Assembly (NCBI GenBank): GCA_964556655.1
Contig: CAZKWY010000001.1
Location: 7,528 to 71,527, forward strand
Direction of reading: 5' to 3'
DNA length: 64,000 nucleotides
DNA from: an uncultured Candidatus Saccharibacteria bacterium
Lineage (GTDB): Bacteria; Patescibacteriota; Minisyncoccia; Portnoybacterales; UBA2143
Positions 4,051-61,618 of this stretch are shown here, piece by piece. Numbering within the stretch: position 1 is the first letter of the stretch; each line of letters starts with the position of its first letter. The notes under the pieces were generated by a model. The model worked only from the letters and a program-made list of their open reading frames with translations, was not told the origin of the DNA and ran no database searches. The position numbers and the translations under genes are program-made.

Positions 4051-4125
4051 TGGTGCCCCCGCTAGGATTCGAACCTAGAACCAATTGCTTAAGAGGCAAC
4101 TGCTCTGCCATTGAGCTACAGGGGC
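4051..4125 (-). tRNA. tRNA-Lys (anticodon CTT), CCA encoded
   Basis: Manual cloverleaf: acceptor GCCCCTG/CGGGGGC, D-arm GCTC..GAGC, anticodon loop CTCTTAA, T-arm CTAGG-TTCGAAT-CCTAG, discriminator A, then CCA. Confidence 0.8.
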
Positions 4126-4207: not shown

Positions 4208-4249
4208 CTTGGTCCGCATATTAGCATAAACAAGCCAAACAGGCAACCC

Positions 4250-4471
4250 TTATTGGCAGTCCTCAGGACAGCTTTCTCTTGTCTCTGGACAAGGACAGCC
4301 AAATGCTTGGCAAACCATTTCTTGACAAACGCCATCGCCACAAAGATCCTGGCATATTTCTGTTTTATTTTCGCCGCCTCCTTTTCTTTCGTTGTTTTCT
4401 CTGGCCAATAAAAAAGCGGCGAAAATAAGAGAAATTACAACTAATAATAAAATTATCTTTTTGTTAAACAT
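4250..4471 (-). CDS. Small secreted or membrane-anchored cysteine-rich protein
   Basis: 73 aa from the ATG at 4471 (the track's longer ORF begins at TTG). An N-terminal hydrophobic segment MFNKKIILLLVVISLIFAAFLLA is followed by 10 Cys in about 35 aa: CQDLCGDGVCQEMVCQAFGCPCPETRESCPEDC. Confidence 0.4.
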   Translation of the reverse strand: MFNKKIILLLVVISLIFAAFLLARENNERKGGGENKTEICQDLCGDGVCQEMVCQAFGCPCPETRESCPEDCQ

Positions 4472-4559: not shown

Positions 4560-5999
4560 ATGGAAAAATTACCTAGTATCATTAAGAATATCCTTGAGAA
4601 ACTGGAGAAAGAAGGCTTTGAAGCTTATGCTGTGGGAGGATGCGTTCGCGACTTGCTCCTCGACAGAGAACCGAAAGACTGGGACATTGCTACTAGCGCT
4701 CTTCCTGAAGAAATTCAAAAAATATTCCCCGAAAGCTTTTACAAAAACAAGTTTGGCACGGTTACCGTTAAAACAAAAAGCTTGGTTGAAACGCTTAAAG
4801 AAGTTGAAATAACCACTTTTAGAACAGAAGAGGGGTATTCTGATAAAAGGCATCCCGACAGAATAGAATTCGCTAAAACGCTTAAAAAAGACCTTTCTAG
4901 AAGAGACTTTACCATCAACGCCCTGGCCTTAAATAAGGAAGAAAAGCTCATCGATTTTTATTGCGGCCAAAAAGATATAGAAAAAAAGTTTCTTCGGGCA
5001 GTCGGGACGCCCAACAAACGATTTGAGGAAGACGCTCTGCGCATGCTAAGAGCTGTTAGGCTGGCCGTAGAGCTCAATTTTAAAATAGAAGAAAAGACTT
5101 TGTCAGCTATAGAAAAAAACGCCGGCTGGCTTCAGGCTATCGCTAAAGAAAGAGTTAGAGACGAATTCTCCAAAATGATTATGACTGACCGCCCTCACCA
5201 AGGGATAGAGCTTTTAAGAAAAAGCGGATTGTTGAAATATATTATTCCAGAATTAGAAAAAGGTATTGGGATAAGCCAAAACCGCCACCATATCTACACC
5301 ATCTATCAACATGCTGTCCTTTCTTTGAAATTTGCCGCCCAGAGGAAATATAGCATGGAAGTTCGCCTTGCCGCTCTTTTGCATGATATTGCCAAACCGC
5401 AGACTAAAAGAGGGGAGGGGCCTGATGCTACTTTCTACAATCACGATAACTTGGGAGCGCGCTTTGCCGTAAAAATCCTTAGTCGATTGAAGTTTCCTAA
5501 AAAAACCATAGAGAAAACAGCCCTTTTAGTACGCTATCATATGTTTGTTTACGGAGTAGAAGAAGTCAGCGAAGCTGGCGTAAGAAGGCTTTTGCGCCGC
5601 GTCGGGCCGGAAAATGTTCAAGATTTAATTGATTTAAGGGTAGCCGACAGGCTGGGTAGCGGATGCCCCAAAGCTGTCCCCTATAAATTACGCCATTTGC
5701 GATATATTATTGAGAAAGTCTCCAAAGATCCTATTTCTCCTAAAATGATCAAAATTAATGGCAGCGACTTAATAGAGCGCCTCGGTCTAGGGCCTGGACC
5801 AAGAATCGGCCTGCTTCTAGAGGCGCTGCTTTCAGAAATTTTAGAAAATCCTAAAATTAATATCAAAAAACACCTTCTTGAGAGAGCCGAAGAGCTAAAC
5901 AAGTTATCTGAAAAGGAATTAGAGAAAAAAACAGAAAGAGTAAAAGAAAGAAAAGAAGAAATAGATCTCCAAACAAAGCAAAAACACTTCGTCAAATAG
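4560..5999 (+). CDS. cca: CCA-adding tRNA nucleotidyltransferase with HD domain
   Basis: 479 aa. The N-terminal pol-beta NTase motif GGCVRDLLLDREPKDWDIAT, the downstream RRDFTINA motif and the HD motif LLHDIAKP are all present, followed by a K/E-rich C-terminal tail. Confidence 0.85.
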   Translation: MEKLPSIIKNILEKLEKEGFEAYAVGGCVRDLLLDREPKDWDIATSALPEEIQKIFPESFYKNKFGTVTVKTKSLVETLKEVEITTFRTEEGYSDKRHPDRIEFAKTLKKDLSRRDFTINALALNKEEKLIDFYCGQKDIEKKFLRAVGTPNKRFEEDALRMLRAVRLAVELNFKIEEKTLSAIEKNAGWLQAIAKERVRDEFSKMIMTDRPHQGIELLRKSGLLKYIIPELEKGIGISQNRHHIYTIYQHAVLSLKFAAQRKYSMEVRLAALLHDIAKPQTKRGEGPDATFYNHDNLGARFAVKILSRLKFPKKTIEKTALLVRYHMFVYGVEEVSEAGVRRLLRRVGPENVQDLIDLRVADRLGSGCPKAVPYKLRHLRYIIEKVSKDPISPKMIKINGSDLIERLGLGPGPRIGLLLEALLSEILENPKINIKKHLLERAEELNKLSEKELEKKTERVKERKEEIDLQTKQKHFVK

Positions 6000-15568: not shown

Positions 15569-17320
15569 ATGAAGGTGGATAATTCCCAATTAAAAGCTTT
15601 CATTCTTGACGCAGAGCTAGTTAAAAAAGAAGACCTGGAAAAAGCTGATCAGAAAGCAAAAAAAGAGAAAAAAAGCCTGGGAGATATCTTAGTCCAACAA
15701 AAACTCCTTACTCAAGAACAGCTTATTAAGCTCAAAGCCTATATCCTAGGCATTCCTTTTGTAAACTTGGAAGAAGCCAATATCGACCAAGATGTTTTAA
15801 GAATTATCCCAGAACCGATTGCCAGGCGTCATAACATCATCGCTTTTCGTAAAAACGGACGCGATCTAGAAGTGGCGATGCTTGACCCCAGAGACCTTCA
15901 GACGATTGAGTTTATCAAAAAGAAGTCAAGCTTAGAAATTCTTCCCCGCCTAACTACCCCGGAAAGCATTAAAAATATCCTCAAGCAGTATCAAAAAAGT
16001 CTAGAAGCGGAATTTGGCGAGCTTATTAAACAAGAGTCTGAAATGGTCTCTCTCCCTGAAGAAGCCACCGAAAAAGAAAGCAAAGAAGACCTGGAAAAAG
16101 CAGCCGAACAAATGCCAATTATTAAAATTGTTGATACTCTTTTAAAGCATGCTATTCTCCAGCAGGCCTCGGACATTCACATTGAGCCAACAGAGAAAGA
16201 AGTTGTCGTCAGATATCGCATTGACGGCATTCTGCGCGATGCTATGACTCTGCCCAAAAAAGTTCATTCCGGCATTGTCGCGCGCATCAAAGTCCTTTCC
16301 AATTTAAAATTAGATGAACACCGCCTTCCCCAAGACGGAAGGTTTAAAATAGAAACGCCTGATTATAAAATCTCTTTCCGCGTTTCCATTCTGCCTGTCT
16401 ACGACGGAGAAAAAATAGTTATGAGGCTGCTTTCTGAAGACAATAAAGGCCTCACCTTAGAAACTCTCGGCTTGGCCGGCAAAGCGCTGGAAAAAGTCCA
16501 CCAAAACATCGCCCGTCCCAATGGCATGATTCTAGCAACCGGCCCAACAGGATCCGGAAAGACAACCACCCTCTACACTATTTTAGATATTCTCAATCAG
16601 CCAGAGGTTAACATCTCCACTGTTGAAGACCCCATTGAATACCGTATGCCACGCATCAATCAGACTCAAGTAAGACCGAAAATAGGGTTGACTTTTGCTA
16701 ATGGCCTGCGCGCTCTTGTCAGGCAAGACCCCGACATCATTATGGTAGGCGAGATTAGAGACAACGAAACAGCTGGCTTAGCTGTCAATGCCGCTTTAAC
16801 CGGTCATTTAGTTTTATCTACCCTCCATACCAACAGCGCTTCCGGCGCTTTTCCACGATTAATCGACATGAAAGCGGAGCCGTTTCTCATCACCTCTACT
16901 GTTAACGTGATCATCGCCCAAAGGCTGGTCAGAAAGCTTTGCTCAGAAACCAGAAAGGCTTATCATTTAAGCGAAAAAGACTTAAAGAATTTTTCTGAAC
17001 AAGTTGACTTAGAAAAACTATTAACTACTATGAAAAACGAAAAAATTGTCGGTCCCAAGGACACTTGGGAAACAATTAATTTTTTCCGGCCTCAAAAATC
17101 CGAAGACTGTCCTGACGGATACAAAGGACGCTTGGGTATTTATGAAGTGCTAGAAATAAGCGAAAAGATAAGAGAAATGATCGTTAAAGAAGCTAATACC
17201 GACCAGATAGAAAAGCAAGCGAAAGAAGATGGCATGCTCACTCTTATTGAAGACGGCATCATTAAAGCCGCCCAAGGGCTAACCAGCATTGAAGAAGTCC
17301 TGCGCGCTACCCAGGAATAA
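15569..17320 (+). CDS. pilB: Type IV pilus assembly ATPase PilB (GspE family)
   Basis: 583 aa. It has an N-terminal GspII_E_N-like domain, Walker A GPTGSGKTTTLY, aspartate and histidine boxes (DPIEYRMPRINQTQV, STLHTNSA), and Walker B in PDIIMVGEIRD. Confidence 0.9.
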   Translation: MKVDNSQLKAFILDAELVKKEDLEKADQKAKKEKKSLGDILVQQKLLTQEQLIKLKAYILGIPFVNLEEANIDQDVLRIIPEPIARRHNIIAFRKNGRDLEVAMLDPRDLQTIEFIKKKSSLEILPRLTTPESIKNILKQYQKSLEAEFGELIKQESEMVSLPEEATEKESKEDLEKAAEQMPIIKIVDTLLKHAILQQASDIHIEPTEKEVVVRYRIDGILRDAMTLPKKVHSGIVARIKVLSNLKLDEHRLPQDGRFKIETPDYKISFRVSILPVYDGEKIVMRLLSEDNKGLTLETLGLAGKALEKVHQNIARPNGMILATGPTGSGKTTTLYTILDILNQPEVNISTVEDPIEYRMPRINQTQVRPKIGLTFANGLRALVRQDPDIIMVGEIRDNETAGLAVNAALTGHLVLSTLHTNSASGAFPRLIDMKAEPFLITSTVNVIIAQRLVRKLCSETRKAYHLSEKDLKNFSEQVDLEKLLTTMKNEKIVGPKDTWETINFFRPQKSEDCPDGYKGRLGIYEVLEISEKIREMIVKEANTDQIEKQAKEDGMLTLIEDGIIKAAQGLTSIEEVLRATQE

Positions 17321-24554: not shown

Positions 24555-25064
24555 TTATCTTAATTTTCGGTAGCTTCTGATGTGCCAGAAGCCTTCCTCC
24601 CCTCTTCTGACTCGGATACGCCTACTGGCTGTCCCGAGCAACTCAGAACCGCTATAGACTCTGACCATAATGAGTGTCTCCTCTCTTCTTCGCGCTCCCC
24701 ATCCCCTAGGAACATCTTTCACAAGTATCCCGCCGGGATTAAGGGAATGCCAAGCCGCGTCATCCTGGATGTAAACTAGAACTTTGCGGCTAAGGCCATT
24801 AAAAATTTTGAACCGCCAGTTGAAAAATCCAGGCGGCTCGGACGGATCTACGTAGGCTTTCTCCTCCCCGCTTTTGGAAAGATGATCCACGACCGACCCG
24901 ACTCCAGCGCCAGTTAACCCGCCTACGAGAGCGCCTCTTTCATCTCCCGTATGAAGGCCAATACCAGCGCCCAGAAGGGCGCCTGTCGCTGCCCACTGAT
25001 GAGTGCATCCAAAAGAAAGCGCCATGACTATTGCCATTGCCATTGTTGCCCTAATTCTTTTCAT
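24555..25064 (-). CDS. Glycine-zipper lipoprotein
   Basis: 169 aa. The signal peptide has a lipobox (MAMAIVMALSFGC). The glycine-zipper TM-like motif is GALLGAGIGLHTGDERGALVGGLTGAGVGSVV. GC content is visibly higher than in neighbouring genes. Confidence 0.5.
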   Translation of the reverse strand: MKRIRATMAMAIVMALSFGCTHQWAATGALLGAGIGLHTGDERGALVGGLTGAGVGSVVDHLSKSGEEKAYVDPSEPPGFFNWRFKIFNGLSRKVLVYIQDDAAWHSLNPGGILVKDVPRGWGARRREETLIMVRVYSGSELLGTASRRIRVRRGEEGFWHIRSYRKLR

Positions 25065-41948: not shown

Positions 41949-42132
41949 AACTAAAATTAATTAAAGACCTAGTTTAGGTTAGCATTTTAAAAAAACTAAG
42001 TCAAATCACTAACAACTTATCCCCAATCAATCCACAACTAAAGAAAAAACAGCATTATCTGTGGATATTTTTTAAAATATCGGGTTTGTGATAGAATAAA
42101 AGCGCTAACAAAAAAATAATTTCCCCAAGTTT
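41949..42132. promoter_or_regulatory. oriC part 1 (rpmH-dnaA intergenic) with DnaA-box-like 9-mers
   Basis: TTATCCCCA (42017-42025), AATCCACAA (42029-42037), TGTGGATAT (42060-42068, reverse complement ATATCCACA) and TGTGATAGA (42088-42096) are compared against the TTATCCACA consensus. Confidence 0.6.
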
Positions 42133-43494: not shown

Positions 43495-43662
43495 CCTCTT
43501 ATAAGATTTTTATCAACAAGCTTTTCTATTCTTTTTGCCCAAGCTGTTAAAAAGAAAAATAACTCTAATAAACAAAAAAGAAGTTTTTCCCCATAAAAAT
43601 TATCACTAATAATATCAATAATAATTTTATATTTATATTATTAATATTATTATTAATTAATA
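43495..43662. promoter_or_regulatory. oriC part 2 (dnaA-dnaN intergenic): DnaA-box-like TTATCAACA plus an AT-rich unwinding element
   Basis: TTATCAACA lies at 43513-43521. An A+T tract of more than 90% spans 43605-43660 (AATATCAATAATAATTTTATATTTATATTATTAATATTATTATTAATTAATAA). Confidence 0.55.
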
Positions 43663-44775
43663 ATGGAAATTATTTGTCTCAAAGAAAAATTAAAAAAGGC
43701 CCTTAATATTGCGGAAAGAATTATCGGAAGAAACTTAACTTTGCCTATCTTAAATAACCTTTTATTGAATACAGAAAAGAATAAGCTAAGAATTTCTTCT
43801 ACTAACCTTGAAATAGGCATTAATTGTTGGCTTCCTGTTAAAGTTAAGGAAAAAGGAAGCATTACTGTGCCTGCTAAATTGATAGCTGGTTTTGTTAATA
43901 ATCTTCCCAATAAAAAAGTAGAGATAAAAAATAAAAACAACCAACTGCAGATAAAATGCGAAAGCTATAAATCAATTATTAACGGCTTAAGCGCCGATGA
44001 TTTTCCTATTATCCCTAAAGTTAAAAGTGATTGTGTCTTAGAAATCAAAGGCAGTAATTTAAGGGATACTCTTTCTCAGGTGGTGAGCATTGCTTCTTTT
44101 TCAGAATCAAGGCCTGAAATTTCTGGTGTTTTTATTTCCTTTAATAAAAATAATATTACCTTAGCGGCAACAGATAGCTTTAGGTTGGCGGAAAAAAATT
44201 TAGAAGCGGAGAAAAGCAACTTTTCATTCGGAGAAAACAGCTCTATTATTGTTCCTCAGAGGACAATTCAGGAATTAATAAGGATCTTAGGCGAAGAAGA
44301 TAGCGAGCTGGTTAAATTATTTTTTGCTAATAGCCAAATTTTATTTGATATGGGCAATCAGCAGATTGTTTCACGTCTTATTGAGGGTCAATACCCAGAT
44401 TATCAACAAATTATCCCCGACAAACTTGAAACAGAAGCTATTATTAATAAACAGGAGTTAATTAACAGCGTTAAATTATCCGGTTTATTCAGCGGCAAGG
44501 CAGGAAATGTCAATCTATTAGTTAATCCTAAAAAATCGGCGGTCATTGTTTCCTCAAAAGACACTGAACTAGGGCAAAACCAATCCCAAATAGAGGCTAA
44601 GATTAAAGGGAAAGAAATAGAGGCAACGTTAAATTATCAATATATATTAGAAGGATTAAGCAATATTTTTAGCGATAAAGTTGTTTTGGGGCTTAATGAT
44701 AATTCCAAGCCAGTTTTATTAAAACCAGTAGGAGATATTAGTTATAATTATATTGTTATGCCTATTAAAGTATAA
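43663..44775 (+). CDS. dnaN: DNA polymerase III beta sliding clamp
   Basis: 370 aa with the three-domain clamp pattern (LKKALNIAERIIG...LPILNNLLL). It is directly downstream of dnaA. Confidence 0.85.
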   Translation: MEIICLKEKLKKALNIAERIIGRNLTLPILNNLLLNTEKNKLRISSTNLEIGINCWLPVKVKEKGSITVPAKLIAGFVNNLPNKKVEIKNKNNQLQIKCESYKSIINGLSADDFPIIPKVKSDCVLEIKGSNLRDTLSQVVSIASFSESRPEISGVFISFNKNNITLAATDSFRLAEKNLEAEKSNFSFGENSSIIVPQRTIQELIRILGEEDSELVKLFFANSQILFDMGNQQIVSRLIEGQYPDYQQIIPDKLETEAIINKQELINSVKLSGLFSGKAGNVNLLVNPKKSAVIVSSKDTELGQNQSQIEAKIKGKEIEATLNYQYILEGLSNIFSDKVVLGLNDNSKPVLLKPVGDISYNYIVMPIKV

Positions 44776-44776
44776 T

Positions 44777-45541
44777 GATTAGCAAATTAAAACAAATTGG
44801 CTTATCAGACAAAGAAGCTAGAGTTTATCTAGCTTCTTTGGAGCTTGGAGAAGCTTCTATCCAAAAATTTCTTTAAAAGCAGAAGTCAATCGACCAACTA
44901 CTTATGTTCAGATGGATAGCCTTATTAAAATGGGATTAATGGCTTCTGTGGAAAAGAATAAAAAAAAGCGCTTTTCGCCTCTTCCTCCTTCGCAACTGCT
45001 TTCTTTTTTAGATAACAAAGAAAAAGAAATTGCCAAAAAGAGAGAAGATCTTAAATTGTCTCTATCAGAGTTTGATTATATTTATAATTTATCTTCTTCT
45101 AGCGAAAAGCCCAGGGTGATGTTTTTTGAAGGAAGAGAGGGGATTAAAGCTATCCAAAACGATATTCTTAAAAGTAAAATAGATCATATTTGCGAATTTG
45201 TTTCTTTAGATGATTCTTATCGTGTTTTTCCGCCAAAAAAAAACGATCATAGGGCAAAAATGAAAAAGAAGTTAAAAAAAGTTGTCAGTCGTGTAATTTA
45301 TACCACTCAAAAAGGCCCTTTTCTAAAAGAAAAAGACAATCTTACTGAACGGCGGTTTGTGCCTTATGAGAAATATCCTTTTCATACTGAAATTAGTGTT
45401 TATGCCAATAAAACAGCCTTTGTTTCCCATCAAGATAAGCTTATTGGCGCGGTAATTGAATGCCAAGATATTTCTAACAGCTTGGAGATTATTTTTAATC
45501 TAGCTTGGGAGGCAACAGAAAAACACCAAAGAGAAAAATAA
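44777..45541 (+). pseudogene. TrmB-family transcriptional regulator interrupted by a frameshift in an A5 tract (about 44866)
   Basis: Frame 1 gives MISKLKQIGLSDKEARVYLASLELGEASIQKFL followed by a stop. The HTH continues in the +1 frame (ISLKAEVNRPTTYVQMDSLIKMGLMASVEK) into the 209-aa ORF at 44912-45541. Confidence 0.5.
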
Positions 45542-45566
45542 GTCGTAGTTGTTTTTAATTTTTAAA

Positions 45567-45603
45567 GCCCCTATTCCGAAAACAAAGGAATAGGGGCTTT
45601 TAA
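45567..45603 (+). terminator. Rho-independent terminator after the TrmB-like gene
   Basis: GCCCCTATTCC-(10 nt)-GGAATAGGGGC followed by TTTT. Confidence 0.65.
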
Positions 45604-45812
45604 GCTGCCCTCTTTGCAGTGGGCAACCCTAGGTAGTGTGAATTTTTTTATTGCCATAAAGCAGCACTCTCCTTTCTTAATATTTTATTATAGATGTTTT
45701 TTGATAGGATATCAAGTGAATATTTTATGTCAACAATATTTGACATAGATCAACAAAATTTATATGATATCAATAATGTCAGTTTTTTAGCGTAGTTTTA
45801 TGTCATTATCTA

Positions 45813-45841
45813 TTGACATAAAATATAATAAGTGATATAAT
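45813..45841 (+). promoter_or_regulatory. Consensus sigma70-type promoter (TTGACA, 17-bp spacer, TATAAT)
   Basis: TTGACA lies at 45813-45818 and TATAAT at 45836-45841 with exactly 17 bp between them. No protein-coding gene follows on the plus strand. Confidence 0.6.
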
Positions 45842-45847
45842 CTAGAA

Positions 45848-45961
45848 AACAACACTTTTTAGTGCGAGAGTCTCGCCTCGTTCTCCTCCTTACGAGGCCT
45901 CCTTCCGGGGGGATAGGGGCTTGATGCCGTAAGAGGCTTTCGCGCTAAAGGGTGTTTTTTT
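45848..45961 (+). ncRNA. Candidate small RNA (~110 nt) with C/U-rich hairpin loops, class unknown
   Basis: It is bounded by the consensus promoter and a T7 run. Predicted hairpins are GCGAG-AGU-CUCGC, CCUCGU-UCUCCUCCUU-ACGAGG and CCUCC-UUCC-GGGGG; the last contains a U-G pair that is valid only on the plus strand. Confidence 0.35.
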
Positions 45962-48509
45962 ATTCTATTCTTATTTCAACAATATCTTCTGCTTTATTAA
46001 GCGATTTATCATAAACTCTTGCTTTGATAATTTGTTTTTCAGAAGAATGGTCTAGATAAGAAACAATAGGCAGAGTCAAAGAATAAGGCACACGAGTATC
46101 GACTCCGATTAAATAGTCGTTGAAGTAAAATTCTACTTGGCTAACTTTTAATAATGATTTTACTTGAGCAGAAATAGTTAATTCTGATTTTTTTATTGTT
46201 TCGTTGTTTTTAGGAGAGATGATTTTAATATTAATGCTTTCTTCAGGCGAATTGTTTCCATTCTGGCAGGATTGGCAGGGCGGAGTTTGATTATAACAAA
46301 TGTCTTCGGAGCACCCTTGTTCTTGCGCCCATAAAAGAACTGGCGCTTCCCAGTTGTTGAACTGGGGGTCTTGGCTGGGGTTTTTCGGATAATCGCCCAG
46401 AGGATTATCTTTATCAACATAGTAAAGAATATTATGCGCTTGGCGATAATTTCTTTCTTCTATTAGGCCAATAGGAGTTTCGCCAGTAGCAGCCTCTCCG
46501 GTTTTTTTGTTAATAAGAACAGTTGTTTGAGAAAAAAATTCTCCATTTAACATTGGTTTAGTTGGCGGGTTGTTTTCTTGAGGAGGAGCGAACTCTTCAT
46601 TCTGGATGGGCAGATTGAAATAATTATTAGTTGATTTTTTTTCTTTTTTTGTTTCTTCTTTTGCTTGGTAGCTTTTTTCCATAAAAGCTTTCCATATAGG
46701 GGCGGCCACATAAAGACCGGCTGCTCCCGGCTTCATTTTTTGAGAATAATCGTTATTACCAGCCCAGACTCCTACTACTAAGCTGGGCGTGTATCCTACA
46801 GTCCAGCCGTCGCTGTAGTTTTGCGTGGTGCCTGTTTTAGCGGCGGCGGAACGGCCTGGCAGGTAGAGATCTGACTGAGGGCCAAACATAGGCACGCGCG
46901 CTGCTTCATCAGAAAGGATGCTGTTAATTTGACGCGCGGTTTGCGCTTCAAGCACTCTTATAGAATCAGGGCGGTATTCTTCTAGGATATTTCCTTGGGC
47001 ATCCTCTATCTTTAAAATGATGGCTGCCTTGTTCTTAATCCCCTCGGCGGCAAAAACGCCATAGGCGGCTGTTTCATCAAAAAGCTTTACTTCTCCGCCT
47101 CCTAGAACCAGAGAAAGGCCGTATGCTTTTCTGTTTTTGAGGGTAGAGATGCCCATATCGTGGGCAAGATTAATGGTTTCCTCTATTCCTGCCAGGTAAA
47201 GCGTTTTTACCGAAGTTACGTTAATAGATTGGGCCAGAGAATTTCTCATGCTAATAGGGCCGCGATACTGAAGGTCGTAGTTTTTAGGCAAATAAAGTTG
47301 TTCGCCAGCGCCAAAATTGGTAGGCATGTCAAAAAGCATTGTTTCTGGGGTATATCCTTTTCTAAAAGCGGCAGCATAGGCAAAGGGCTTAAAAGAAGAT
47401 CCTGGCTGGCGATAGGGGCTGGTAGCTACATTAAACTGGTCTTCTTGATAATTCTTTGATCCTACCAAAGCCACTACATGGCCTGTTTTAGGATCAATAG
47501 CGACTAGAGCGCCATTGTTCGCGCTATATTTTTGCTGGTTTTTTTCCACTCCTTCGGCTACTATTTCTTCGGCGATCTGCTGGAGATCCCAGTCTAAAGT
47601 AGTGTAAACCTTAAGGCCCGCTTTGTTAATGTCAGCATAAGTTTGCTGGTAGTTTTTCTCTAGGTATTCTTTAACCATAGCAACAAAATGATGCGCTTTT
47701 AGATCTTTCTGGCTGGCGTATTTTATTTCTTCATCTTTGGCTTCTTGCGCTTGCCGCGCCCCTAAATAGCCTAATTGGACCATTCGATCTAAGATATAGT
47801 TTTTTCTTTGTTTTAATTCTTCAACATGAGAGCCATAAGGAGAATAATAGCTGGGAGCTTTAGGCAGGGCCGCTAAGGCGGCTCCCTCCGCGAGAGTAAG
47901 CTCTTTAGCCGATTTGTTAAAAAAAGTTCGGCTGGCGGCTTCTATACCGTAAGCGTTTGAGCCATAAGGAACCTGATTAAGATAGAAGCTCAAAATTTCA
48001 TCTTTCGTATATTTGCTTTCTAGCTCAAGAGATAAGATAGCTTCTTTAATTTTTCTAACAATAGTTCTCTCTGATTGAGGCCCTCCCAGATAGGCGTTTT
48101 TAATAAATTGCTGAGTAATAGTAGATCCACCCTGGGATATTCTTTTTTGGGTGATATTTGACCAAGCGGCTCTAAGGATGCCGCGCCAGTCTAAGCCGAT
48201 ATGATGATAAAAATTATCGTCTTCTATGGCAATAGTAGCCTCTTTGATAAATTGGGGAATTTCTTTATAGGGGATGACGGTCCTTTTTTCTTCGCCATGG
48301 ATGTCGTAAAGAATGACTTCTCCGCTGCGATCATATATTTTGGTTGATTCGATGATTTCTCTTTGCCCCATATTATTAGGATTAGGCAGGTCCTTGGCAA
48401 AATAAGCGAAGAGAAAGATAGTCCCTAAAAGACCGAAGACAAAGCAAAAAACAGCTAACTTAAAAGCTACTTTAACAATTCCCAGGCTTGTTATTCTTTT
48501 GATACTCAT
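45960..48509 (-). CDS. Class A penicillin-binding protein (PBP1A-type transglycosylase/transpeptidase) with a C-terminal extension
   Basis: There is an N-terminal TM anchor. Glycosyltransferase motifs are EDDNFYHHIGLDWRGILRA, GGSTITQQFIKNAY and RKIKEAILSLELE. Transpeptidase motifs are the active-site SSFKPF, plus SINV and KTGT. The start is ambiguous (ATG at 48509 or TTG at 48545). Confidence 0.85.
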   Translation of the reverse strand: MSIKRITSLGIVKVAFKLAVFCFVFGLLGTIFLFAYFAKDLPNPNNMGQREIIESTKIYDRSGEVILYDIHGEEKRTVIPYKEIPQFIKEATIAIEDDNFYHHIGLDWRGILRAAWSNITQKRISQGGSTITQQFIKNAYLGGPQSERTIVRKIKEAILSLELESKYTKDEILSFYLNQVPYGSNAYGIEAASRTFFNKSAKELTLAEGAALAALPKAPSYYSPYGSHVEELKQRKNYILDRMVQLGYLGARQAQEAKDEEIKYASQKDLKAHHFVAMVKEYLEKNYQQTYADINKAGLKVYTTLDWDLQQIAEEIVAEGVEKNQQKYSANNGALVAIDPKTGHVVALVGSKNYQEDQFNVATSPYRQPGSSFKPFAYAAAFRKGYTPETMLFDMPTNFGAGEQLYLPKNYDLQYRGPISMRNSLAQSINVTSVKTLYLAGIEETINLAHDMGISTLKNRKAYGLSLVLGGGEVKLFDETAAYGVFAAEGIKNKAAIILKIEDAQGNILEEYRPDSIRVLEAQTARQINSILSDEAARVPMFGPQSDLYLPGRSAAAKTGTTQNYSDGWTVGYTPSLVVGVWAGNNDYSQKMKPGAAGLYVAAPIWKAFMEKSYQAKEETKKEKKSTNNYFNLPIQNEEFAPPQENNPPTKPMLNGEFFSQTTVLINKKTGEAATGETPIGLIEERNYRQAHNILYYVDKDNPLGDYPKNPSQDPQFNNWEAPVLLWAQEQGCSEDICYNQTPPCQSCQNGNNSPEESINIKIISPKNNETIKKSELTISAQVKSLLKVSQVEFYFNDYLIGVDTRVPYSLTLPIVSYLDHSSEKQIIKARVYDKSLNKAEDIVEIRIE

Positions 48510-48714
48510 TCTTATAATAATGCCAAAATTAAATATTTTTGGCAAGAAAATTACTCAATAAAAAATCTCTTCTTGAGAGAAAAAATCCTATAGCTAGCAG
48601 GATATTTTAATTTTTTGCTTAAAAGATAATCAATAGTTTCCCCGGCCGAGTTCATTTTTTTTCGTGATGAGGGAAGTGGTGGATCTATAATCCAGGAAAA
48701 GAGCAAGATGTCAT

Positions 48715-60439: not shown

Positions 60440-61618
60440 ATGGTTTTTAAGCAGATGAAAGTAGGCATTGTTGGGAGCGGAGTGGCCGGTTTAACTTGCG
60501 CTTACCGGCTTTCCCAAAAGAAAATAGAAACTATCAACATAGAAAGAGAGCCTTTTATCGGCGGTCGGCTCTTTTATAATATTGGAGCTATTACTGGCGA
60601 GGATGTTTACCCAAGGACGCACAGTCTCATTAAGGACCTAGGCATAGAAGTCTTAGTGACGCCCCTCGCTCCGTCTGAGCTGGCGGTAGTAGGCGGCAAA
60701 AAAGTGATAGGAGCTGAAACGGCTCCGGAAATGCTAAAACAACTTTCCAAAGAAGATCTTGATTATTACCAGGAATTTATGAAAACTTTAGCCACCCTTG
60801 ACTTTGATGGCGGGACTGGCGAGATAGAAAAATTAAGAGACATCTCTTTAGAGGAGTATTTAAAGGACTGTCCTGATTCTATCAAGCATTTCTTTGTTAG
60901 CGCTATTATGAACTTTGTTTTTGAAAGCGATTACAGCAAGATGGCGGCTGATTACGGACTTTTTGTCTTAAAGCATGGTTTTGATGTTTTTGCCGGCAAG
61001 GGATATATCTTTGAAGAAAGCTTAATCCCTCTAGGCAATGTTTTAGAAGAAAAAGTTAGGCAAGCAGGTGGAAAAATTGAAAACGACTCATTAGTAGAAG
61101 AGATTACGGAAGAAGGAGGAGAATTTAGGATAAAATATGACCAGAAAAAGAAAGAAAAAGATATCGTTGTAGATAGAATTGTTCTGACGACGCCCCTTCC
61201 TGTTGCCAAAAAAATATTCCCTGCCTTAGAAATAACTAGCGATATTTTTTATAAGGACATTAAATGCTTTTTAGTTAAGGGAGAGCTCAAAGAAAATAGA
61301 AAACTTTTTGTCGGTGTTAGAGAACAGGATGTGAGCAATATGGATATTATCTCCACGGGCCTTCCTTTTGAGCATTTAGTGATTCCTTTTGATCCGGGGA
61401 AAGAGATAGATTTTGACGTTTGGTATAATAGTTATTCTGTGATAGACGAAAAAATAGTGCCTAACGGAATGTCTGTCCGCCCTCCAAAGGCGCGAATGCC
61501 AGAGCTAACCACTAATATTAAGGGGGCTTATTTGTGCGGAGATTTTTATCATTACCCGATGATTGAGGCTTCTGTTAATTCAGCTAACCAAGTAGTTGAA
61601 ATGATCAGCAGTTATTAA
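60440..61618 (+). CDS. FAD/NAD(P)-binding oxidoreductase (amine-oxidase/desaturase-like)
   Basis: 392 aa. The N-terminal Rossmann dinucleotide motif is KVGIVGSGVAGLTCAYRL. Confidence 0.6.
   Translation: MVFKQMKVGIVGSGVAGLTCAYRLSQKKIETINIEREPFIGGRLFYNIGAITGEDVYPRTHSLIKDLGIEVLVTPLAPSELAVVGGKKVIGAETAPEMLKQLSKEDLDYYQEFMKTLATLDFDGGTGEIEKLRDISLEEYLKDCPDSIKHFFVSAIMNFVFESDYSKMAADYGLFVLKHGFDVFAGKGYIFEESLIPLGNVLEEKVRQAGGKIENDSLVEEITEEGGEFRIKYDQKKKEKDIVVDRIVLTTPLPVAKKIFPALEITSDIFYKDIKCFLVKGELKENRKLFVGVREQDVSNMDIISTGLPFEHLVIPFDPGKEIDFDVWYNSYSVIDEKIVPNGMSVRPPKARMPELTTNIKGAYLCGDFYHYPMIEASVNSANQVVEMISSY

Follow-up and report, generated by a model that had tools for sequence, protein, structure and literature searches.

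The window that we analysed, a stretch of 64,000 nucleotides, is the replication-origin region of a chromosome from the Patescibacteria (also known as the candidate phyla radiation, or CPR). Positions 45848-45961 of its plus strand encode a structured RNA of a family that is absent from Rfam 15. This RNA belongs to a portable Patescibacteria cassette, along with a gene for a TrmBL2-like regulator, a convergent micro-ORF (ORF is short for open reading frame), and promoters that are fused to operators. Our best explanation overall, to which we give a probability of about 0.5, is that this cassette-borne RNA forms a four-way junction, is controlled by the repressor, and acts by pairing between one of its loops, which resembles the anti-Shine-Dalgarno sequence, and ribosome-binding sites. 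(We abbreviate Shine-Dalgarno as SD.)

A structured RNA family that is absent from Rfam 15

An earlier note on this DNA, made from the letters alone, had pointed to a perfect consensus promoter that is followed by a gene-less interval ending in a run of seven T, and both observations hold. The promoter of the RNA matches the sigma-70 consensus at all 12 positions: it has a -35 box TTGACA (45813-45818), a 17-nt spacer that ends in TGA, and a -10 box TATAAT (45836-45841). No other site in the window matches at 12/12. If one mismatch is tolerated, the count rises to 4, versus 0.39 expected (0 of 100 shuffles reach 4), and three of these four near-consensus promoters lie within 155 bp of each other at this locus. 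The interval downstream of the RNA promoter contains no ORF and ends with U7 at 45955-45961. Its GC content is 56% (45850-45949), as compared to 20-26% on both flanks.

The plus strand of this interval folds with a predicted energy of -58.9 kcal/mol (z = -6.2; 0 of 200 shuffles were as stable), versus -40.1 kcal/mol for the minus strand (z = -3.25). The earlier note described a string of hairpins. Three hairpins (P2, P3, and P4) are real, but they are enclosed by a perfect 24-bp helix (P1) that went unnoticed, so the structure is a four-way junction. All 38 pairs form on the plus strand and only there. Because six of them are G-U pairs (five in P1 and one in the CUCC/GGGG stem of P3) and none are A-C, the plus strand must be the transcribed one. 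The same strand had been proposed on the basis of a single U-G pair, which does exist in P3 but is just one of the six. Furthermore, the covariance model described below gives the RNA 110.5 bits on the plus strand and 22.5 bits on the minus strand.

The 3' strand of P1 runs into U7, and together they look like an intrinsic terminator, but this stem sits beneath a branched structure and has many A-U and G-U pairs at its base. (Our simple terminator scan requires a loop of 3-8 nt and hence does not list it.) Transcription would start about 3 nt before P1 and stop at P1 and U7, which would yield a discrete small RNA (sRNA) of about 112 nt. The stop codon of PBP1A, a convergent gene for a class-A penicillin-binding protein, overlaps the last two U of U7.

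Homologues of the RNA were traced through the regulator, as a metagenome scan with a TrmB-like alignment led to 80 loci. A covariance model (R1) with three seeds (the window and loci L044 and L074) found further copies in L052/53/54 (two in tandem, 65 and 35 bits), L045/46 (63 bits), L055 (58 bits), and L083 (41 bits). After de-replication, the family has six independent lineages (the window and five others), all of them beside TrmB-like genes. R1 has no match in 377 kb of control origin loci or in five additional TrmB-like loci; with its filters off, the four such loci that came from Logan, ENA, and JGI gave none either. A search with a hand-written descriptor gave no extra family members. 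We attribute a weak match to the model at 15700-15798 of the window to chance (fold z = -0.46).

The earlier note suggested searching relatives for covariation, and the helices do covary. Across 7 sequences, 93.9% of the pair cells are standard pairs, versus 33-57% if the 3' partners are slid. Both sides change in 29 of the 38 pairs, including 22 of the 24 pairs in P1, and the covariation score is 0.72 versus 0.30 in shuffles; 0 of 500 shuffles reach the observed values. RNAalifold predicts the same four helices from the same alignment, with compensatory changes in 28 of 37 pairs.

The copy in L044 (homologue P0124) is in a syntenic arrangement: the C-terminus of dnaN, the TrmB-like gene, the micro-ORF, promoter and operator, the RNA, and a convergent PBP1A. 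The RNA of L044 forms the same four-way junction (fold z = -10.9), and its P1, at 27 bp, is wholly different in sequence but is still paired. Its P2 is GCCUUGA-UUCCUCCUUA-UUGAGGC, its P3 is CCCCC...GGGGG with a 36-nt insert, and these are followed by the junction strand AUAAA and a P4 of GGC-UAUAU-GCC. Downstream of this RNA are an SD sequence and a 69-amino-acid ORF, which is missing in the window.

Some parts of the RNA are conserved in sequence and not just in pairing. P1 varies from 20 to 27 bp across the family, but its inner 9 bp have the consensus 5'-GRGARYCUY / RAGRYUYYC-3' (GAGAGUCUC in the window). The conserved bases of the other helices are GCC/GGC in P2 and CCCC/GGGG in P3, and the conserved core includes GGGG-AURA-N (GAURA), a P4 of GGC-N5-GCC, and a junction strand NNAA. 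The window fits this signature with GGGG-AUAGG, GGC-UUGAU-GCC, and GUAA. In contrast, the insert in P3 can be as short as 4 nt or as long as about 130 nt. We also looked for a tertiary contact of the P2 loop with the junction J3/4, but its pairing was not consistent across members. Outside the window, the RNA sits within longer transcripts, upstream of the micro-ORF, of other small ORFs, or of a tRNA. The discrete sRNA form that was originally proposed, of about 110 nt with a promoter and a terminator-like end, would be peculiar to this genome.

In L052, two tandem copies of the RNA lie just upstream of tRNA-Glu(UUC) (5395-5517, 5680-5780, and 5795-5869), and the first copy is degenerate, with P1 and one long hairpin only. 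The DnaB gene of L052 carries an intein with a LAGLIDADG domain.

At the gathering level, Rfam 15 matches only 6 tRNAs in the whole window, and at E ≤ 10 we found only noise at 45540-46020, with no match to signal recognition particle (SRP), 6S, or Y RNA on either strand, nor in the six other members of the family. Searches of 8 related loci and of 20 further cassette loci also gave only tRNAs. When the family members were compared to Rfam 15, none reached any gathering score and none had E ≤ 0.1. The best Rfam match over the RNA is to anti-hemB (RF02837; 20.4 bits, E = 0.019, gathering score 49.5), and this alignment involves only the UCUCCUCC loop and the U tract, at low posterior probability. 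The earlier note allowed that an SRP or 6S RNA on the minus strand might account for the region; neither strand matches them, and both are excluded. Specifically, bacterial SRP RNA (RF00169) has no model match, and the fold is a four-way junction on the plus strand instead of a single long hairpin with the conserved domain IV loops and a GNAR tetraloop; 6S RNA, which is about 180 nt with a large central bubble, has no match either, and the RNA is about 112 nt without a central bubble. The opposite-strand 12-mer CCGGAAGGAGGC, which had been likened to the SRP RNA, is present, and the SRP hairpin is absent, as the note had said.

BLAST had no match in collections of phages and plasmids, and the pattern TCTCCTCCTT-N4-12-CCTCCTTCC had six matches in IMG/VR, all of which are low-complexity sequence or chance matches in coding sequence. 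Our search of the literature found no description of the RNA, the operator, the micropeptide, or the cassette. By these comparisons, this is a new structured-RNA family within a cassette, undescribed in Rfam 15 and in the literature that we searched.

The cassette and its setting

The promoter had been described as an orphan, which turned out to be wrong: it lies in a conserved TrmB-like/micro-ORF cassette and is one of two tandem plus-strand promoters, and the -35 box of each is a half-site of an 18-bp palindrome (operators O1 and O2 in Table 1). The motif TGTCA-N8-TGACA occurs 54 times, in 46 of 83 TrmB-like loci (391 kb), versus 0 times in 377 kb of control loci. In the window, O1 and O2 are its only occurrences. 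A -10 box lies 16-18 nt after 43 of the 54 sites, so the operator-promoter layout recurs in related loci; the promoter-plus-operator layout is found in 46 loci. TGTCAA-N6-TTGACA is likely the operator of the TrmB-like regulator and would define a CPR regulon. We infer that the regulator binds the palindrome as a dimer and represses the promoter.

The regulator gene, whose start overlaps the stop of dnaN (TAATG), is disrupted as encoded. It is split into a 33-amino-acid ORF with the helix-turn-helix (HTH; 44775-44876) and a 209-amino-acid ORF (44912-45541) by a frameshift in a run of five A (around 44863-44867). A run of six A restores a protein of 255 amino acids, which matches Pfam's TrmB (PF01978) with 46.9 bits (cut-off 25.6; E = 2.5e-12), while the 209-amino-acid ORF alone has no Pfam match. 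The full-length homologues have 247-258 amino acids and are 50-57% identical. An AlphaFold model of the orthologue P0124 (mean predicted local distance difference test score, or pLDDT, of 91.6) matches archaeal TrmBL2 (5bpd) over its full length (E = 1e-12), with a winged HTH, a long coiled-coil helix, and a PLD-like domain; it also matches structures of TrmB. The NCBI and Logan assemblies share the frameshift, but they might derive from the same reads, and the split could reflect a pseudogene, a sequencing error in the homopolymer, or slippage. Because the regulator gene is frameshifted, the promoter of the RNA may be permanently derepressed here.

TrmB-like relatives are numerous (at least 541 in one metagenome scan), and none were found in IMG/VR, so the cassette is not obviously phage-borne. 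The genes that flank it are unrelated housekeeping genes, which implies that it is portable. In the window, the regulator, the operators, and the micro-ORF are all within 1.1 kb upstream of the RNA.

In every case, the micro-ORF and the regulator gene converge, and the hairpin between them (45561-45603 in the window) is likely a bidirectional terminator for both. Family members have 15-28 codons and encode basic residues followed by [W/F]x[LV][RP]x[VAI][AT]HCxxGx and the stop (e.g., ...VAHCxEGS); an example is MLKRRWMLRAVAHCDEGS. In the window, TTA replaces the TAA stop codon of homologues such as L044, which adds 10 codons. We found the family in 20 of 89 TrmB-like loci, which fall into 15 distinct groups, and in 0 of 34 control loci. 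Synonymous codon variation (serine is encoded by AGC, TCT, or TCA) points to selection at the protein level and shows the micro-ORF to be coding. The RNA is found only in groups that have the micro-ORF (6 of 6, versus 9 of 61 for the other groups; Fisher p = 5e-5). In L044, about 5 nt separate the stop codon of the micro-ORF from the terminator hairpin that it shares with the regulator gene. This geometry is reminiscent of TnaC and other arrest or leader peptides, or else of RNA-binding peptides that are rich in arginine.

The cassette has two layouts. In layout A (the window, L044, L052, and L083), the micro-ORF and the RNA diverge from the operator region. In layout B (L074, L045/46, and L055), the operator-promoter is followed by a leader, the RNA, an SD sequence, and the micro-ORF, all on one transcript. 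The cargo downstream of the operators varies widely and includes GC-rich structured leaders, zinc-ribbon mini-proteins, receiver-domain proteins, and nucleotidyltransferases.

Among the leaders of this structured, GC-rich kind are those that come after the operator-promoter in L042 (4340-4500) and L043 (3415-3585), which belong to one type and precede mini-ORFs that are Cys-rich or zinc-ribbon. There are also structured leaders just after the operator in L079/80/82/84/94/95/98/99/102/106/113, as well as in L072, L121, and L124. Many of the operator-driven transcripts begin with GGCAGAUUGAAA, and another group has CAUGGGUGGUC in common. Rfam identified only tRNAs in the leader loci L042, L043, L072, L079, L080, L082, L094, L095, L106, L121, and L124, and these leaders may be further undescribed RNA families. 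In L045, the leader of the micro-ORF contains GUAGUGAAUUCUGGGAAGGAGG twice (4075-4098 and 4240-4262, minus strand). It is the second of these that provides the SD sequence. Either copy is able to base-pair with UUUCCCAGA segments upstream, so the SD may be sequestered in a regulated way.

The gene order around the cassette is yidC-rnpA (minus strand), dnaA and dnaN (plus strand), the locus under study, and the convergent PBP1A (minus strand). The closest database homologue of PBP1A is only 68% identical, and its named relatives are from Candidatus Portnoybacteria or the "Patescibacteria group." dnaN and the PBP gene also converge in 10 genomes with about 60% identical DnaN and in 4 more that we reached via the closest PBP homologues. 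In these relatives, which include the closest genomes, the gap between dnaN and PBP lacks the RNA and has nothing but a small unrelated ORF or a simple bidirectional terminator of 60-120 nt. Similarly, blastn and nhmmer with the RNA found no match in 29 origin loci of related genomes. As the RNA is missing from the same chromosomal site in relatives, the 1.2-kb segment with the regulator, the micro-ORF, and the RNA is, judging from these comparisons, an accessory insertion.

The probable oriC is at 41990-42070 and 43590-43660. DnaA-box-like 9-mers lie upstream of dnaA (TTATCCCCA at 42017 and ATATCCACA at 42060), the spacer between dnaA and dnaN is extremely AT-rich, and the cumulative GC skew has its minimum at about 42-44 kb. 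We considered 45650-45840 as an alternative oriC and rejected it, given the canonical DnaA boxes and the GC-skew minimum upstream of dnaA; the repeats at 45650-45840 are the TGTCAA/TTGACA operators and not origin repeats.

Table 1. Coordinates of features at the locus, in positions of the window unless another locus is named
Feature	Position	Strand	Remarks
dnaA	42133-43494	+	gene order
dnaN	43663-44775	+	gene order
TrmB-family (TrmBL2-like) winged-HTH regulator gene	44775-45541	+	split by 1-nt frameshift
Hairpin, 17-nt arms, flanked by A/T runs	45561-45603	.	inverted repeat, 94% complementary
Micro-ORF, MAIKKFTLPRVAHCKEGSLKAPIPLFSE	45571-45657	-	conserved micropeptide family
Promoter-like site TTGATA-N17-TATAAT, toward micro-ORF	45687-45715	-	11/12
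Putative operator O1, palindrome TGTCAA-CAATAT-TTGACA, TGTCAACAATATTTGACA	45728-45745	.	right half is -35 of upstream tandem promoter
Upstream tandem promoter TTGACA-N17-TATGAT	45740-45768	+	-35 is right half of O1
Putative operator O2, palindrome TGTCAT-TATCTA-TTGACA, TGTCATTATCTATTGACA	45801-45818	.	right half is -35 of RNA promoter
RNA promoter TTGACA-N17-(TGA)TATAAT	45813-45841	+	12/12 sigma-70, extended -10
RNA, about 112-114 nt	45848-45961	+	start inferred from -10; end is U7; model 110.5 bits
P1, 5' strand	45851-45874	+	pairs with 45933-45956; 24 bp, 5 G-U, 0 mismatches
P2 hairpin, 7-bp stem GCCUCGU/ACGAGGC, 10-nt loop UCUCCUCCUU (45882-45891)	45875-45898	+	fold; loop contains CCUCCUU
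P3 hairpin CUCC-UUCCGG-GGGG, one U-G	45899-45912	+	fold
Junction AUAGG, P4 hairpin GGC-UUGAU-GCC, junction GUAA	45913-45932	+	fold
P1, 3' strand (45933-45956), into U7 (45955-45961)	45933-45961	+	terminator-like
PBP1A, class-A penicillin-binding protein gene	45960-48545	-	stop codon 45960-45962
Micro-ORF copies in related loci	L042 4046-4108; L043 3137-3193; L044 963-1019; L045 3983-4069; L052 4740-4820; L058 3831-3881; L074 3839-3904; L083 987-1073		conserved C-terminus
Micro-ORF copies in related loci	L107, L116, L118, L123, L127		conserved C-terminus

How the RNA might act

We infer that the RNA functions either by anti-SD pairing with the mRNAs of the cassette or by binding the basic micropeptide. 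In the explanation that we prefer, a dimer of the TrmBL2-like protein would repress the promoter from TGTCAA-N6-TTGACA (here the gene is frameshifted), and the rigid four-way junction would display the P2 loop UCUCCUCCUU, which is a copy of the 16S anti-SD. This loop would pair with the unusually strong SD sequences of the cassette's mRNAs and so block the initiation of translation. The first candidate target would be the divergently transcribed micro-ORF, and a secondary one would be a lipoprotein gene at 24555-25064 (minus strand). We have low confidence in this mode of action for the P2 loop.

The loop contains CCUCCUU, the core of the 16S anti-SD, in 5 of the 7 copies (the window, L044, L074, L045, and L055), of which L045 and L055 have a longer version, ACCUCCUUU. 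The earlier note highlighted two C/U-rich loops as possible seeds. The P2 loop is real and conserved, as just described; the UUCC loop is real in the window but is not conserved, and the second CCUCCUU belongs to the 5' strand of P3, a strand that reads CCCC in relatives. SD sequences are scarce in the window: among the 52 ORFs of 150 amino acids or more, with starts assigned by a naive first-ATG rule, just 4 (about 8%) have GGAG or GAGG at -20 to -4. In contrast, the ORFs of the cassette have strong SDs. The micro-ORF has an SD of the GGAG/GAGG type, and its initiation region is in the top 4% for pairing with the P2 loop. The initiation region that pairs best belongs to the lipoprotein gene, which encodes a Gly-zipper (YMGG-like) protein (-18.6 kcal/mol over 11 bp); its SD region, AAGGAGGAGAA, complements the P2 loop perfectly over 11 nt. 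This gene has a promoter of its own (TTGACA-N18-TGnTATAAT; the upstream region extends to about 25140). Another 11-mer complement of the loop, at 61113, was discarded because it is inside a coding region.

Several observations weigh against the preferred explanation. The prediction of targets, which the earlier note had recommended, gave the lipoprotein and micro-ORF matches, but the window has no significant excess of complements to the loop (7 versus 3.1 expected with at most one mismatch; 4 of 100 shuffles reach 7). We found no locus-specific co-variation of loop and target, and the pairing to the micro-ORF is just the generic 6-8 bp of SD and anti-SD. L052b, whose loop has 3 nt and which precedes tRNA-Glu, and L083, with a long hairpin, both lack CCUCCUU. 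The conservation of inner P1, the junction, and P4 is not explained by simple seed pairing and suggests a protein partner. Furthermore, the window's cassette may be in decay and this copy of the RNA a leader stranded in it; the lesions are the frameshift in the regulator, the TTA in place of the micro-ORF's stop codon, and the absent 69-amino-acid ORF. Only the window's copy is directly followed by a U tract, and the other lineages have no terminator after the RNA; both ends of the transcript are deduced from the sequence. Finally, six lineages make for a small family, and the alignment behind the covariation statistics was fitted to a model for which the window is one of three seeds.

It is conceivable, though on balance we think it somewhat unlikely, that the RNA is primarily a scaffold for a protein of the cassette, with the basic, Trp- or Phe-containing micropeptide as the best candidate and the anti-SD loop as a secondary feature. 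A complex of RNA and peptide could modify termination or translation, or it could store the peptide. The strict co-occurrence of the RNA with the micro-ORF would make sense if they were partners, as would the order of operator-promoter, leader, RNA, and micro-ORF on one transcript in L074 and L045/55. The micropeptide resembles an arginine-rich motif, and the layout is analogous to lambda pL-nutL-N. Inner P1, the GAURA and NNAA junction strands, and P4 are conserved in sequence as well as in pairing, which is typical of a surface for recognition by a protein, and the RNA persists without the anti-SD loop in L052b and L083. However, nine groups have the micro-ORF but not the RNA, the C-terminus of the window's micropeptide is 10 residues longer because TTA replaces the homologues' stop, and the likeness to N/nut is confined to the layout.

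We consider it unlikely that the RNA is a by-product of this particular locus, namely mainly a bidirectional terminator between the cassette and the convergent PBP1A and/or a 5' leader that was stranded by the deletion of its downstream ORF. Any activity would then be antisense in cis, as about 110 nt are perfectly complementary to the 3' end of the PBP1A mRNA. At least 10 relatives have only a simple bidirectional terminator hairpin in the gap between dnaN and PBP1A; here, the stop codon of PBP1A overlaps the U tract, and the minus-strand copy folds at -40 kcal/mol and is followed by UUGUUUUCU. The orthologous RNA of L044 does lead into an SD and a 69-amino-acid ORF that the window lacks, and two other genes of the cassette carry lesions. 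On the other hand, a terminator needs neither P2-P4 nor the junction, yet all 38 pairs and the conserved junction residues are intact, and all six G-U pairs favour the plus strand. The RNA also has its own 12/12 promoter with an operator, and the family has been kept in six lineages with unrelated flanking contexts.

A wider proposal, which we regard as speculative and quite unlikely, would make the RNA, together with the ...W-x-LRPVAHCxEGS micropeptide, a CPR regulatory unit of a kind not seen before. The unit could be an RNA-peptide complex similar to that of lambda N/nut, or it could involve a ribosome-arrest peptide whose stop codon is about 5 nt from the shared terminator. If so, the TrmBL2-like repressor, convergent transcription, and the RNA and peptide would together make a compact bistable switch for a hypervariable cargo of small proteins and RNAs, and the loop that mimics the 16S RNA would tie the switch to the translational state of the cell.

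It is highly improbable that the junction binds a small molecule and controls downstream ORFs as a riboswitch. Four-way junctions do occur in known riboswitches such as SAM-I and cobalamin, and in several loci the RNA is in a 5' leader before an SD and an ORF. But very few unpaired positions are conserved, P1 (20-27 bp) is far too stable for a ligand-dependent switch, and there is no match in Rfam. The downstream genes are unrelated to each other (the micro-ORF, the 69-amino-acid ORF, a tRNA, or nothing), and there is none in the window.

Finally, a divergent housekeeping RNA (SRP 4.5S, 6S, or Y RNA) that the Rfam models miss in the CPR is effectively refuted: the minus-strand CCGGAAGGAGGC resembles the SRP domain IV core, and a P1 that closes a multi-helix domain recalls bacterial Y RNAs, in which a long terminal helix does so, but the supported strand is plus, no SRP, 6S, or Y RNA model matches at E ≤ 10, no Ro/Rsr gene is among the flanking genes that we examined, and the RNA is in only 6 of 67 groups of TrmB-like loci and is absent from the closest genomes at this site, so it is a poor fit for an essential RNA.

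Significance and comparison with known systems

The CPR bacteria have tiny genomes and depend on other cells, and our search found no literature on regulatory RNAs in this group or on this cassette. A single locus yields an RNA family that is supported by covariation, a conserved 18-bp operator that is fused to a promoter, and a conserved micropeptide gene. The operator defines the likely regulon of a widespread TrmBL2-like regulator, and at 15-28 codons, the micropeptide gene is likely missed by standard gene callers. If the anti-SD loop does act on mRNAs, then it would be a simple way to select the few mRNAs that depend on an SD, given that about 8% of long genes have one. With the operator motif and the covariance model, thousands of uncultured genomes can be searched for the system directly.

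SRP (4.5S) RNA is similar in size to the RNA that we describe, and a GGAA-containing 12-mer is present here on the minus strand. However, this is the wrong strand, there is no long hairpin with the loops of domain IV, and the RNA is not universal among relatives.

The P2 loop is reminiscent of the C/U-rich anti-SD loops of anti-hemB (RF02837, also known as Burkholderia RNA 7), the "toxic" sRNAs, the CcsR or cuckoo RNAs, and RsaE/RoxS, which would be the nearest known RNAs in function. These sRNAs have their own promoters and intrinsic terminators, and a CCUCC motif in a loop that is able to pair with ribosome-binding sites. Their hosts are Burkholderia (anti-hemB), alphaproteobacteria (CcsR and the cuckoo RNAs), and Firmicutes (RsaE/RoxS), while our RNA is from the Patescibacteria. 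It has no homology to anti-hemB, CcsR, or RsaE, and it places the motif on a four-way junction that is closed by a 24-bp helix. Also unlike those sRNAs, the RNA domain is found within long leaders as well, and the motif is lost in 2 of the 7 copies.

The architecture of L074 and L045 resembles that of lambda pL/oL-nutL-N and of the put RNAs of HK022, in that a promoter overlapped by an operator is followed by a structured RNA and a tiny gene for a basic peptide. The similarity is in layout alone, with no similarity of sequence or structure and no phage context.

The regulator of the cassette shares a winged HTH, a coiled-coil helix, and a PLD-like C-terminal domain with archaeal TrmB and TrmBL2, and the palindromic site fits a dimer. 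In contrast to those archaeal proteins, the cassette's regulator has no evident sugar-binding subdomain, its hosts are bacteria of the CPR, and its putative operator doubles as the -35 box of the promoter.

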